Source: Chrysomallon squamiferum (taxonomy: Eukaryota; Animalia; Mollusca). Taken from it: a stretch of DNA of 64,000 nt. The DNA lies in assembly GCA_012295275.1 (NCBI GenBank), contig CM022672.1, forward strand, positions 35,154,001-35,218,000, read 5' to 3'. The translations under genes and the position numbers were made by a program. The notes beneath the pieces are model-generated. The model worked only from the letters and a program-made list of their open reading frames with translations, did not search any database and was not told where the DNA came from. Shown here piece after piece: positions 511 to 59,032 of the stretch (positions within the stretch are counted from its first letter, which is position 1; every line of letters begins with the position of its first letter).

Positions 511-3500
511 CTGTACAATCAACACCTTTCCATCCAGTTTCACATCCTGTTTTACATTTACCATCAGTGTGTTTACAATCTGACTGTCCGTCACAGCGTC
601 TGTCTGTACAAGACTTTGAACAGTTGAATCCGTAAGTGCCCCGTGCACAAACTGTAATAAGAAACAACTTATTAGTTACTAATCTATGACAGAATAAAAT
701 AATAGCATAAAAAATAAGATATAAGCTACAAAGGAACGTAACTGAATGAAAACATTTGACTAAATATTTAGTTTGTGTCTCTTACTTTCAGAACAGTCTG
801 TGTTTCTCCAGCCTGGCTCACAACCTCCGTCACATGTTCCAGTGTTTGAATCACACGTTGAGTTAACCAAACAGTGACGATCAGAACATCGCTTTGAACA
901 TCCAGAACCATAAGTCAATCCTCCTTTACATTCTGAAATTCAGTTTTTAATTTACATAAATAAAATAGTATAATATTAATTATTAAATTTTTGCAATTAA
1001 TGAAAAAGAAGAAGAAGAAAAAAGACAATTTTTAAAACGTTTTCTCTTTCAGGATTTGTGCATATTTCTCTTGCATGTGTTCTGTGTTTTCTTATTTAGC
1101 TTTATCAATCATGTGTTTTTCAATCGTTGTTAATACGTTGTTAGCCATTAAATGATACTGTGCTACTAACTGGTCCTATACTTCAGACACGCCAGTTTTA
1201 ATGAACTATTTTATATTTACCTCTACAGTCAATTCCTGCCCAACCAGTCAGACAACCATCATTACATTTTCCGTTTGTGTGATTACATCTGTGATCTCCT
1301 GTACAGTGTCGATCTCTACACTTTAGTGAACACTTCGGACCATAGAACCTACGCTGACAAACTGAAAAATATCAAAAATAATAAGTTAATATTTAGAGAT
1401 AATTATCTAGTGAGAATACTACATATATCCAGAATGAGCAAACAAACAAATAATAATTCTCAGTTATAAGTTGTCACCTTGAGAACAGTCAGGTTCTAAC
1501 CATCCTGGTTGACAACCTCCGATACACTGACCAGTCTTTGTGTCACACGTTGATGTGTTCAGACAATGACGTTCAGAACACTGCTTCTTACAACCAGATC
1601 CATAGGTCACTTCTTTAACACATTCTGAAAGAATACAAAAGTTATTACAAAAATTCAAATATACAAAAAAATTTTGTTCTTTCATTAAATTCGCAAACAA
1701 ATATTTTTTCTGAAAATCAATAATTTCATTAATAAACTAATGTCAAATTGAGAATGACTAATGTGCTATATCAAAAATAATTCAACTTTTTATCTATAAT
1801 AATATTTTCGTTTCAAGTTATACAGAAATAAATGAAAAATTATTTCTGGTAAACGGTTACAGAGAGAGAGAAAAAATATTTTTATTACTGTTGTTAAAAT
1901 AAATAATATTAACGTCATTTTTGTCCATAATATTAAAGTTCTAAGATGCATAGGAAGAAAACAATACAAAGGTACATTTTTCTCATTAGACGTATAATTC
2001 CTGTTTCATATACATAGTACACACAATGCAAATAACTTTGACACCATGTGCTTTTGAGTAATTACAGAATCAGTTTTTATATTGTCTAGCTATAATTTGC
2101 ATCTTGTCTCCTCTAGTTTTTTGTTTGATTTGGTTCCAGAATCAGTGAACCATTTATAGGCAGTTTCCTATAACAGATTATACTATTCGACGAAAAAAAA
2201 CAACCCAAAACAACAACAAACAAAGAAACAAAAAACAATGCAAAAAAAATAACAACAAACAAAACACTACAACAATAAATAACACAAAATAAAATAAATC
2301 AACACTAGTAAATAAATAAATCAATAAATAAATAAATAAATAAATAAATCAATAAATAAATAGACAAACAATTAAATACCTAAATAAGGACAAATCAAAC
2401 ATTTTGGATATAAATATATACCTGTGCAATCAAAACCTTTGCATCCAGTTCTACATCCTGTTTTACATTTACCATCAGTATGTTTACAATCTGACTGTCC
2501 GTCACAGTGTCTGTCTGTACAATACTTTGAACAGTTGAATCCGTAAGTGCCCCGTAGACAAATGTCTTCTGTTATTGAGCCTTAACAATTATTTCATTAT
2601 CTCGAAACGATGTGTTTATTAAATATGTTTAGCCATTAAATCATACTGTAGTACTGACACGTCCTATACTTCAGTCATGTCAGCTTTAACTGATTCTTTT
2701 ATATTTACCTCTACAATCACTTCCTGCCCAGCCAGACAGACAACCATCATTACATTTTCCGTTTGTGTGATTACATCTTTGATCTCCTGTACAGTGTCGA
2801 TCTCGACACTTTAGTGAACACTTCGGACCATAGAACCCCCACTGACAAGCTGAAAAATATCAAAAATAATAAGTTAATATTTAGGAATGATTAGCTAGGA
2901 ATAAATACTACATATATCCAGAATGAACAAACAAACAAATAATAATTTTGAGTTTTTAGTTTTCACCTTGAGAACAGTCAGGTTCTAACCATCCTGGTTG
3001 ACAACCTCCGATACACTGACCAGTCTTTGTGTCACACGTTGATGTGTTCAGACAATGACGTTCAGAACACTGCTTCTTACAACCAGATCCATAGGTCACT
3101 TCTTTAACGCATTCTGAAATATACAAAATTAATTGCATGCTATTGTTTTATTAAATTTATAACAATCTTTTTCTCTGAAAATCAATAATTACATTAACAA
3201 ACTAATACCAAGTTAAGAATGACTAATGTGCTATATCAATAATAATTCGACTTTTTATCTATAATTATATTTTAGTTTCAAGTTATAAAGAAATAAAGGA
3301 ATAATTGTTTCTTGTAACCGGTTACAGAGAGAGAGAAACAAGATTTTATAACTATGGAAAAAGGAGTTTTCATGTTAATTATTTGCAAAGTCGACCTTAT
3401 TTTATTTTATGTAATAATGATATTATTATATTTGTTAATCTGGACTGATATACACTTAGTAGAACTAATAGATAATTAGGCCTGACTGAAATATATTTAT

Positions 3501-56900: not shown

Positions 56901-59032
56901 ACGTGTGTGTATGTTATCAATGTTCTGTCCAAGTAAGTTAAATAAAGAAGAGTCATTAATATACTGATTAAAATATTTCTCTGTTTTTTTTTTTTTTTTT
57001 TTTGTTGTGAATTTATTTATTTGTTTATTTATTTATTTGTTTATTTATTTATTTACTTATTTGTGATGCTTAATATATGCAGTGAAATGAATCTATGTAT
57101 TTAAACTGTTTTAATAGATGAAGTTTGTTTGTGATGGTTTTCAAAACGCTGTATAATAAACAGGAGATTTACGACATATTTATATTTAAAAAATGAATGT
57201 TTGGTTATCATTAACTATCAATCTTTAAAAAAGTTAATTAACTAATTAATTAATTATTATTCATAACCATCACTAGCAAACGTGTAAGAAACCAATTTCT
57301 TCGATTACATATATATCTATACTTATGACAGTGTTTAAACAACAAAAACAATACAACCAAAGCTCGTCTTGTTTATGTTCAAATCGCTGTTTTAAAATGG
57401 TTTTCATATCTACTGAAACTTTATATCTTCTTGTAAACGATTTTTTTTCTTTTTTCTTTTTATTTATCTTTCCGTTACCAGCAACAGTTTAACGACAACA
57501 ACATCAGTGACAATAACGAAAACAGCAATAATGATAATGTTAATAACGAAAGAAGAAAAATAAATCTTATTTCCAAAATTCTTTTTAGAATGTTTATTTT
57601 GATTACAGAATGTTAAAACTTGATTTTGAAAAATAATAATTAACATTAAGACTTAATCAAATAACAGACTAGAAAATGAAAACATATCCACGTTGCCGCC
57701 ATTATCCGATGTAATAAATAAAGAAGTAAAGTTGTCTTACTTTGTAAAATGATAAAAACATTGTCAGTGAGATTTGTGAACACACTTCAAAAGAGAAAAC
57801 TAAACTTATCTTACTGTACTTTGTGAAATGATCAAAAAAAAACCCATTATCAGTCAGATTTGTGAACGATAGAGAACACACTTCAAGAGGAAGATTCAGT
57901 TCGTCTTTTGTTTTATTAAAATCTGTGGTGAAAACGCGACATATATGACTGAATGTTTGTGTGTATCTATGCGGTTTTTAGTCTGTCAACTGGTTTCTCT
58001 ATGTGTTATTTTTCTGTTTTATTTTTATTATTATTATTAATTGTTTATTCCAGTTTGGGTCAAACAAATAACACGGACACACACACAAAGATAAAGAGAG
58101 AGAGAGAGAGAGAGAGAGAGAGAGAGAGAGAGAGAGAGAGAGAGAGAGAGAGAGAGAGAGAGAGAGAGAGAGAGAGAGAGAGAGAGATATGAATGAGGCC
58201 GAAGGAAGGAATCAGAATAGCGAATCCAAATATTTTATTTTCAATCTTGTTACAGCAATTATTGCTTACATATCTTTGTTCCTTTATATTCTACTAACAG
58301 CATTGAGTCATTTAATCTAAAAGAGCGTCCTTACTTGAGTTAAATGAGGCAAGGTTTCACAAAGAGGAAAGCATAATTAAAGTTAAAGAACTATTCATAG
58401 TGCTATGTTTTGTACTTTCTACAGTGAAGATTAAAAGAGTTTACAGTTTATATAGACATTTTCATTACTGATGTTTTTTCTGCGAAACACAGAATGTAAG
58501 AGCTTGTTATCAACGTATACTAATGTAATCAAGTATCTCAAATTTGATCAAACTTGTATATCAAGTTCCTGTACGCTAAATAGTAAAGATAACTCATTTG
58601 ATAGTTTTGATAACACTATAACAATAAATAGCAAAGAATACGCATGACAATAATAATAAAAAACGAAATGAAAAAATAATCAACTTGAAAACATTATGTT
58701 ATTAATGGATATTTAAACCATTATTAATTAAGTTTTATTATTGTTGTTGTTGAAGTTGTTTATTTTTGAAGAACAAAACAATTAGAATAATAACACAATC
58801 CGAGCTGTTTACATCGATGTCGGTTTCATTGAAAAGTAACATCTTACTGGTATTCGAGTTGTCTAATTCTCTCAACAACATCAGTCATAATAACAAAAAC
58901 AATAAGAATAAGAATAATAATTGTAGTAATAGTAGTAATATTTTATATCTTACCATATCTGGCTGTTATCTGTCCTGACTGCAAAATTAAACAACAAACT
59001 AGAAACTGAAGACTTATCCAGCACCCAGCCAT
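47950..59032 (-). CDS. Gene 4: F-type lectin (first exon disrupted by a 47-bp array) + 4 EGF exons + TM + ITAM-like tail; pseudogene or exon-skipping variant
   Basis: Exons 58954-59032, 54050-55431 (207+1175 nt, stop at 55232-55234), 52737-52958, 51688-51831, 51344-51496, 50680-50832, 50152-50298, TM 48502-48610, tail 47950-48259 (ORF MALIIRKR..YEAF..YVN..YDKL..YEKIKQ*). Without the extra repeat units it is an open 507-aa frame. Confidence 0.8.
49921..50029 (-). pseudogene. Dead EGF exon ([13 protein letters not shown] type) in gene 4
   Basis: 5' third and acceptor deleted; donor GT changed to AT relative to 18549-18689. Confidence 0.8.
51792..52010. repeat. 72-bp tandem repeat (gene 4, 3 copies)
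   Basis: Same unit as 4629-4700. Confidence 0.9.
54103..55324. repeat. 47-bp minisatellite, 26 copies, derived from lectin exon sequence
   Basis: Unit TCTACTTCCCACCACGTGTAAGACTGGTTTGTATCTGTGTGTATAAC, period 47 from 54103; the last unit starts at 55278. Confidence 0.97.

Follow-up and report, generated by a model that had tools for sequence, protein, structure and literature searches.

Paired receptors of vertebrates, such as those of the KIR, LILR, SIRP and Siglec families, place matched ectodomains on unlike signalling ends, and their genes lie in tandem clusters subject to gene conversion. Here we describe an array of comparable design in a 64,000-nucleotide (nt) stretch of DNA from the mollusc Chrysomallon squamiferum (GCA_012295275.1, contig CM022672.1, positions 35,154,001 to 35,218,000 of the forward strand), which is called the window and to which all coordinates refer. 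Its genes encode receptors with an F-type lectin domain and epidermal growth factor (EGF) repeats, in which near-identical outer exons stand on two old and unrelated tails, one short and bearing a motif like the ITAM (immunoreceptor tyrosine-based activation motif), the other a tandem protein tyrosine phosphatase (PTP). We tentatively read this array as a paired on/off set for one glycan-coated target, with confidence a little short of even. Compared with the vertebrate receptors, the ectodomain is of lectin-EGF rather than immunoglobulin (Ig) type, the ITAM-like motif lies in the receptor itself, the PTP is predicted to be catalytic, and an inhibitory counterpart of the ITAM (ITIM) is absent.

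In molluscs, the SudRes1 MEGF/GBD receptor PTPs of Biomphalaria sudanica combine a galactose-binding-like domain, multiple EGF repeats, one transmembrane (TM) segment and a tandem PTP, as the PTP form here does with a putative lectin domain. They are encoded by clustered paralogues next to other MEGF genes, with EGF loss between copies, and this MEGF/PTP cluster maps to schistosome resistance (PMC12297450). The lectin-MEGF-PTP half of the system is already known from Biomphalaria; an ITAM-like short-tail partner or tail swapping is not described in the passages of that report examined here (PMC12297450). In Drosophila Draper-I/Draper-II and mammalian MEGF10, EGF repeats are likewise combined with an ITAM on which Src and Syk/Shark act, and a phosphatase is recruited through an alternative tail. 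Draper differs in its use of alternative splicing, its ITIM that recruits Corkscrew, and its EMI domain and NPxY motif (PMC8092387), whereas in the array described here the two tails are encoded by different genes, the head is an F-type lectin, NPxY is lacking and the PTP is built in.

Two further comparisons are relevant. Botryllus FF/FcoR and Hydractinia Alr are likewise clustered invertebrate receptors that mix activating and inhibitory tyrosine motifs, but they are Ig-based, have ITIM/hemITAM tails and are genetically tied to allorecognition (PMC12065747); the role in allorecognition that the initial annotation had thought plausible for the present array is not supported by our results. 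Receptor PTPs of the PTPRA/PTPRE and CD45 types have an active first phosphatase domain (D1), an inactive second domain (D2) and a C-terminal tyrosine motif (PMC7959691), as is predicted for the PTP form here; in the array, in contrast, a large lectin-EGF ectodomain is common to the PTP and a non-catalytic paralogue, and the expansion is lineage-specific. In the literature searched, which was mostly outside subscription journals, we found no description of molluscan receptors that pair ITAM-like and PTP tails on a common ectodomain. The feature is real, although partly damaged in this array copy, and is new among paired receptors by architecture and evolution.

Two unrelated tails in one tandem array

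The window is microsatellite-rich, has a G+C content of 30% and contains a single gap. Four paralogous genes lie in tandem on the minus strand, each beginning with a 79-nt signal exon; the initial annotation had recognised these four paralogues and their common signal exon, and the signal exons (beginning at 59032, 44547, 26196 and 14094) are 88.6-93.7% identical to one another. The genes are numbered 1 (from 14094, past the window edge), 2 (26196-14518), 3 (44547-29566) and 4 (59032-47951). When the window was compared with itself, entire units including introns repeated at ~75-85% identity. Further, each of the four genes has an EGF exon that is preceded by 72-bp repeats of exon origin (4628, 20327, 41116 and 51791). 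The closest named relatives are proteins of Gigantopelta aegis (51-65% identity), followed by those of Haliotis. The features of genes 2 and 3 are as follows.

14518-26196, minus strand: gene 2, with signal exon, F-type lectin (two exons), 10 EGF exons, TM exon and short tyrosine tail; unbroken 807-aa frame
22540-23783, minus strand: gene 2 F-type lectin exons (23577-23783 and 22540-22761), with His-x27-Arg-Asn-Asp-x4-Arg
17021-17164, minus strand: gene 2 ECDKTYG EGF exon, identical at 144/144 nt to 39485-39628
16147-16290, minus strand: gene 2 ECDGDFYG EGF exon, identical at 141/144 nt to 38821-38964
15361-15469, minus strand: gene 2 TM exon, short-tail type
14518-14872, minus strand: gene 2 tail exon, with YEVF, YVN and YDKL-x10-YEKK
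44469-44547, minus strand: signal exon upstream of the gap, given to gene 3 by scaffold order only
41532-41731: gap of 200 N at the expected place of the gene 3 lectin exons, followed by garbled 72-bp repeats (~40750-41531)
38821-40599, minus strand: gene 3 EGF exons (40447-40599, 39485-39628 and 38821-38964) and a cut-off exon (~39954-39976)
38355-38425, minus strand: extra membrane-proximal EGF exon of gene 3, frameshifted and shortened in the window; RNA contigs have 64 more letters before the TM exon
38127-38229, minus strand: gene 3 TM exon, PTP type
36825-37374, minus strand: gene 3 juxtamembrane exons (37289-37374 and 36825-37111), with YVN and YYNI
32952-36485, minus strand: PTP D1 exons, with KNRY, WPD and HCSAGIGRTG; the Q-loop exon (33569-33703) is one base short
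29566-32404, minus strand: PTP D2 exons, with no catalytic Cys motif and a C-terminal LYAN

The near-identity of the ECDKTYG and ECD[G/E]DFYG exons of genes 2 and 3 was as previously noted. The tails had been said to follow these shared exons immediately. This stands insofar as genes 2 and 4 use a TM exon plus one tail exon and gene 3 an unrelated TM exon plus juxtamembrane and PTP exons; it does not for gene 4, which lacks both shared exons (its last intact EGF exon being ECVKEVTYG), nor strictly for gene 3, in which the extra EGF exon precedes the TM exon. At 39954-39976, an EGF exon of gene 3 ends after ~8 codons and, relative to gene 2, ~1.9 kb and five EGF exons are skipped.

F-type lectins have the fucose-binding motif His...Arg-x-Asp-x4-Arg. 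Lectin exon 1 of gene 2 matched both F5_F8_type_C and F5_F8_type_C_2 of Pfam, and the best PDB matches of the lectin exon were FBP32, lectinolysin and fucolectin-related proteins, with the His and Arg-x-Asp in register. Gene 2 thus has both the fold homology and the motif of an F-type lectin, and is predicted to bind glycan; the motif varies among homologues. The lectin exons of gene 3 are absent from the window and, as had been supposed, their expected place is the gap. The PTP form of the closest homologue, G. aegis P0036, has the lectin, as have 36 of the 61 PTP-type homologues classified below.

The tail of gene 3 consists of two juxtamembrane exons and 15 PTP D1-D2 exons with AG/GT ends. 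Pfam Y_phosphatase matched five of the eight PTP exons scanned, three of them above the curated cut-off. Of the signature of a classical active D1 (KNRY, WPD, HCSAGxGR and Q-loop, in frame), the first three are present. The Q-loop exon has one base fewer than expected from P0036 and therefore, as assembled, the frame is lost past the P-loop and D2 is untranslated. With one X at the Q-loop, the frame from the TM exon to the end is stop-free over 694 aa, and the cytoplasmic part is 56% identical to that of P0036 over 689 aa. One-base losses are present in genes 2 and 3; these, a minisatellite in gene 4 and the broken extra EGF exon may be assembly errors or real lesions. In sequencing run X5 (see below), the entire depth at the extra EGF exon has a base that is absent from the window; X5 may come from another individual.

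Five sequencing runs cover part of the region, four of which are RNA runs from one study. We compared contigs of three of the four RNA runs (X1, X2 and X3) and of run X5 with 38080-38990. In all three RNA runs, loose contig ends at the last shared EGF exon matched the end of the ECDKTYG exon. The last shared EGF was joined to the extra EGF in one record each of X1 and X2, and the extra EGF to the PTP-type TM exon in one X3 record, with 64 letters in between. Loose ends past the TM exon resembled the first juxtamembrane exon in all three runs; one string per site, compared with the window, had 0 and 2 mismatches. Overlapping RNA contigs thus cover EGF, EGF, TM and juxtamembrane exons, and splicing does lead from the shared EGFs towards the PTP-type TM exon. 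Per exon, contigs and window disagree at up to 9-10 letters, and the RNA path therefore speaks for the family and not for the window copy. One X1 record continues for 143 letters that are only partly assignable. Taken with the exon model, the path to the juxtamembrane exon places gene 3 in the MEGF-PTP class (EGFs, one TM and tandem PTP).

We considered whether the association of shared EGFs with two tails is an assembly chimera, in which collapsed paralogues were fused at a microsatellite or across the gap. The gap has garbled flanks, several one-base losses are present, the junction in gene 2 lies at a microsatellite (see below), and X5 contains many divergent variants of these exons (85 contigs). 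A chimera is nevertheless highly improbable, given that RNA splices link the shared EGFs to the PTP-type TM exon and that an independent genome has the same two-tail pairing. Further, the copies are distinct, because the introns around the identical exons differ by ~20%.

Matched ectodomains and a probable exchange of tails

The introns flanking the two exons shared by genes 2 and 3 are ~80% identical. On the other side of the junction, the TM exons of genes 2 and 4 are identical at 97/108 nt, and blastn gave no match between the TM exons of genes 3 and 2. The two shared exons differ at one of 53 synonymous sites, compared with ~19% in the flanking introns (binomial P ~2e-4, or 0.026 with an assumed rate of 10%); synonymous differences are 0-11% in other EGF exon pairs and 17% in the tails of genes 2 and 4. 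This deficit relative to introns and tails suggests exon-level conversion of the ectodomain.

Two further features bear on how the tails came to stand where they do.

16011-16123: (AAT)n microsatellite, the putative swap point; gene 2 matches gene 3 up to 16011 and gene 4 from 15988
27924-29007: spacer downstream of the PTP tail, 78% identical to 46745-47805 behind the short tail of gene 4

Because gene 2 is gene 3-like up to 16011 and gene 4-like from 15988, it is likely a recombinant in which, judging from these matches, PTP-type proximal EGFs were joined to a short-tail 3' end. The match to gene 4 begins inside a decayed exon. Further, the spacers behind the two tail types are homologous over 1.1 kb, and each tail cassette therefore lies between shared flanks. 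We infer that conversion, together with recombination at the introns of the last EGF exons, maintains the match between ectodomains and transfers tails from one to another. At 14130-14559 there is an inverted copy of a segment that lies upstream of genes 2, 3 and 4 (26645-27034, 44994-45382 and 60019-60438); since this copy abuts the stop region of gene 2, that gene appears to have no counterpart of the 3' flank present in gene 4.

The initial annotation had also called for a search of related genomes. An EGF-profile search gave 233 matches, of which the best 120 were classified by TM and motif rules: 61 were of PTP type, one was of partial PTP type, 15 had ITAM-like tails and 19 other short tails (including kinases and truncated models), five were seven-transmembrane (7TM) proteins and 19 had no TM. 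Gigantopelta and three species of Haliotis have complete lectin-EGF-PTP and lectin-EGF-short-tail homologues, and oyster provides a looser case. In G. aegis, the PTP receptor P0036 and the short-tail receptor P0127 share 89.3% identity across a stretch of 393 aa that ends at the TM exon; a second pair with unlike tail types, P0020/P0069, is 83% identical over the final 146 residues of the ectodomain. To the gene 2 ectodomain, P0036 and P0056 each show ~51% identity. The tails of P0056/P0069 are 38-39% identical to the gene 4 tail and 88% alike, with ectodomains only ~40-47% alike. As tails correspond across species and ectodomains pair within G. aegis, the tails existed before the species diverged, and matching of the ectodomains came later. 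Cross-type ectodomain pairs in Haliotis reach 54-73% identity.

We then placed the receptors on a lectin tree (LG+G4; 41 rows, with 32 of 71 matches excluded because of their species, their tail type or a short match length). The 12 short-tail rows were polyphyletic and often next to PTP receptors, with seven state changes, and a single short-tail clade was rejected (p-AU 9e-11, in a test chosen after viewing the tree). Lineage clustered more than tail type (four changes versus a mean of 14). Near-matching clustered ectodomains on unlike tails, homogenised across tail types, are hallmarks of paired receptors, and both are present here. The two-tail, shared-ectodomain architecture initially proposed is borne out by the RNA path to the PTP-type TM exon, the homologous pairs, the conserved tail motif and the homogenised ectodomains.

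The same observations could arise with no functional pairing, in a birth-and-death array where symmetrical phase-1 EGF exons and tail cassettes are reshuffled by unequal crossing-over as a side effect, the receptors act alone and several copies are decaying pseudogenes. The tail cassettes have homologous flanks on both sides, the lectin exon of gene 4 is broken, and, besides the one-base losses, genes 1, 3 and 4 contain EGF exons that have decayed. Other molluscs carry such EGF repeats on 7TM and kinase proteins, and the Biomphalaria cluster shows EGF loss and copy-number change (PMC12297450). On the other side, both tails are intact across Gigantopelta and Haliotis with strongly conserved motifs, matched cross-type ectodomains occur in several lectin clades, and the frame of gene 3 from the TM exon onwards is open bar one base. 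We regard an array without pairing as unlikely.

Other results concern the homologues in general. For the G. aegis short-tail gene, three isoforms (P0126, P0127 and P0056) are annotated, all ending in the same tail; lectin exon 1 is missing from one of them and an EGF exon from one. EGF repeats of the same kind occur on 7TM/GAIN proteins of Crassostrea virginica (P0027, P0030, P0042, P0095 and P0099) and on tyrosine kinases of Biomphalaria, Argonauta and Saccostrea (P0073, P0098, P0104 and P0107), and the ectodomain may therefore be a module with four kinds of tail. A search with lectin exon 1 gave a single exon-sized unnamed protein, and one with the juxtamembrane exon gave no homologue among 60 candidates. 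An Atlas search with the tail returned unnamed clusters only, of low recognition value and a lead at most.

Tyrosine motifs and the sign of the phosphatase form

In its loose form, an ITAM reads YxxL/I-x6-12-YxxL/I, and canonical spacing is 6-8 residues. We examined 22 homologous short tails with lengths of 50-200 aa and found the loose form in 15, compared with 0.13 in shuffles; among 54 juxtamembrane regions of the PTP type, one has it. An exhaustive search with the gene 4 tail gave five matches, all of which retain the motif. The description of both window tails as ITAM-like accordingly holds for gene 4, the only gene in the window with the full motif (YDKL-x10-YEKI), and not for gene 2 as assembled, whose second motif is YEKK, inside a poly-A run (YSKI in G. 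aegis). The short tail thus carries a Grb2-type YVN plus the ITAM-like pair. NPxY was found in neither the gene 2 nor the gene 4 tail, and EMI in none of eight homologues scanned; in the window genes the F-type lectin comes right after the signal exon. We therefore reject an identity with Draper/MEGF10. Derivation of the short tail from a truncated PTP juxtamembrane region was also considered and found weak, with 21% identity that lies mostly in the TM segment and none of seven cross-type pairs aligning past it; one weak match of the short tail, to P0118 (E 3e-6), is left over.

If the two forms are paired, a shared ligand would cluster the short-tail receptor, and a Src kinase would phosphorylate its YVN and YxxL-x10-YxxI pair. 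Syk and Grb2 would bind the phosphorylated tail and drive uptake. The same ligand would draw the PTP form to the same contact, where D1 would strip those phosphates, so that the ratio of PTP to short-tail form would set the threshold. In oyster, an ITAM receptor is bound by Syk and ITAM-Syk signalling is functional in haemocytes (PMC6994640); draper-like genes and receptor PTPs are both up-regulated in agranulocytes (PMC13070813).

The PTP form had been called inhibitory, which our results do not support. The C-terminal tyrosine motif YxN is present in 43 of 50 full PTP homologues, compared with 2.7 expected from random D2 windows (LYAN in gene 3), and is similar to the site in PTPRA that is linked with Src and Grb2; of the 54 juxtamembrane regions, 44 also have YxN. 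PTPRA removes the phosphate from Src Y527 and recruits Grb2 and Src through its own pY789 (PMC7959691). Further, PTPRA and PTPRE are among the top PDB matches of the D1 exon, behind LAR and PTPRS. The PTP form might thus be no brake, priming Src-family kinases as PTPRA and CD45 do or being silenced by ligand-driven dimerisation. The likeness to PTPRA, however, consists of one short motif and one exon, and a Src primer has no obvious need for an ectodomain that matches its partner's. We consider such co-activation, the main rival of the brake, rather unlikely.

Several points weigh against an on/off pair. As assembled, each of genes 2, 3 and 4 is incomplete or has flaws. PTPs of this kind can activate Src, and the inhibitory sign is a prediction. 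The ITAM-like spacing is 10 residues here and 9-12 in most homologues, outside the canonical range, and the 15 motif-bearing tails are not independent (nine G. aegis paralogues, five from Haliotis and one loose oyster match). The RNA path was assembled from short contigs of different runs, with the mismatches given above, and no junction from a shared EGF to the short-tail TM exon was seen among the loose ends listed, where short anchors may escape. Tail type clusters on the lectin tree beyond chance (seven changes versus a shuffled mean of 10.6, with four of 500 shuffles reaching seven). Finally, conversion in tandem arrays homogenises exons even when their products are not functionally paired.

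We still favour, tentatively, the paired on/off set. The broader proposal, of a gastropod paired-receptor system with a receptor phosphatase as the brake, in which ITAM-like and PTP cassettes are repeatedly traded and kept matched by exon-level conversion, is possible but distinctly more doubtful. Mollusc EGF-repeat and PTP proteins labelled 'MEGF10-like', 'draper-like' or 'PTPR-like' are numerous and lack a working model. If the forms are matched pairs, the copy ratio of short-tail to PTP genes, or a tail swap on one ectodomain, should alter responses to glycans of a parasite or symbiont; should the PTP form prove to be a brake, this would be a paired-receptor design that carries its own phosphatase rather than recruiting one. 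In the symbiotic vent snail G. aegis, fucolectin and MEGF families are reported to be expanded, with PTPRK in the same figure legend (PMC7895826). The scheme, if true, would offer a mechanism for the Biomphalaria MEGF/PTP resistance locus and for vent-snail fucolectin, MEGF and PTP expansions.

Genes 4 and 1 and the window edge

The remaining features belong to the outer genes of the array.

47951-59032, minus strand: gene 4, with signal exon, lectin exons 1 (broken) and 2, four EGF exons, decayed exons, TM exon and tail
54050-55431, minus strand: gene 4 lectin exon 1, with 25 extra 47-bp units and an in-frame stop
48502-48610, minus strand: gene 4 TM exon
47951-48259, minus strand: gene 4 tail exon, with YDKL-x10-YEKI
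511-14094, minus strand: gene 1, with signal exon, lectin and EGF series including some decayed exons; its tail lies beyond the window

Gene 4 is likely null as assembled, because of the extra units and the stop in lectin exon 1. The 47-bp minisatellite (54099-55329; 26 copies, 96% alike) arose from the lectin coding sequence of this gene. Further, one of its four EGF exons lacks the first Cys. In gene 1, the Asp of the fucose motif is lost from the lectin. The first EGF exon of gene 1 has an in-frame internal duplication of 54 nt (7139-7330) and is followed by three EGF exons peculiar to this gene.

Upstream of gene 4, decayed retroelement pol-like fragments lie on the plus strand at 61400-62900. 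One gave an RT_RNaseH_2 match (E 2e-5, below the cut-off) and the other three of the four had no Pfam match. The segment at 63717-64000 shows 82-92% similarity to spacer sequence between genes (28240-28413 and 47060-47334), and may be a repeat element or the first part of a further array unit.

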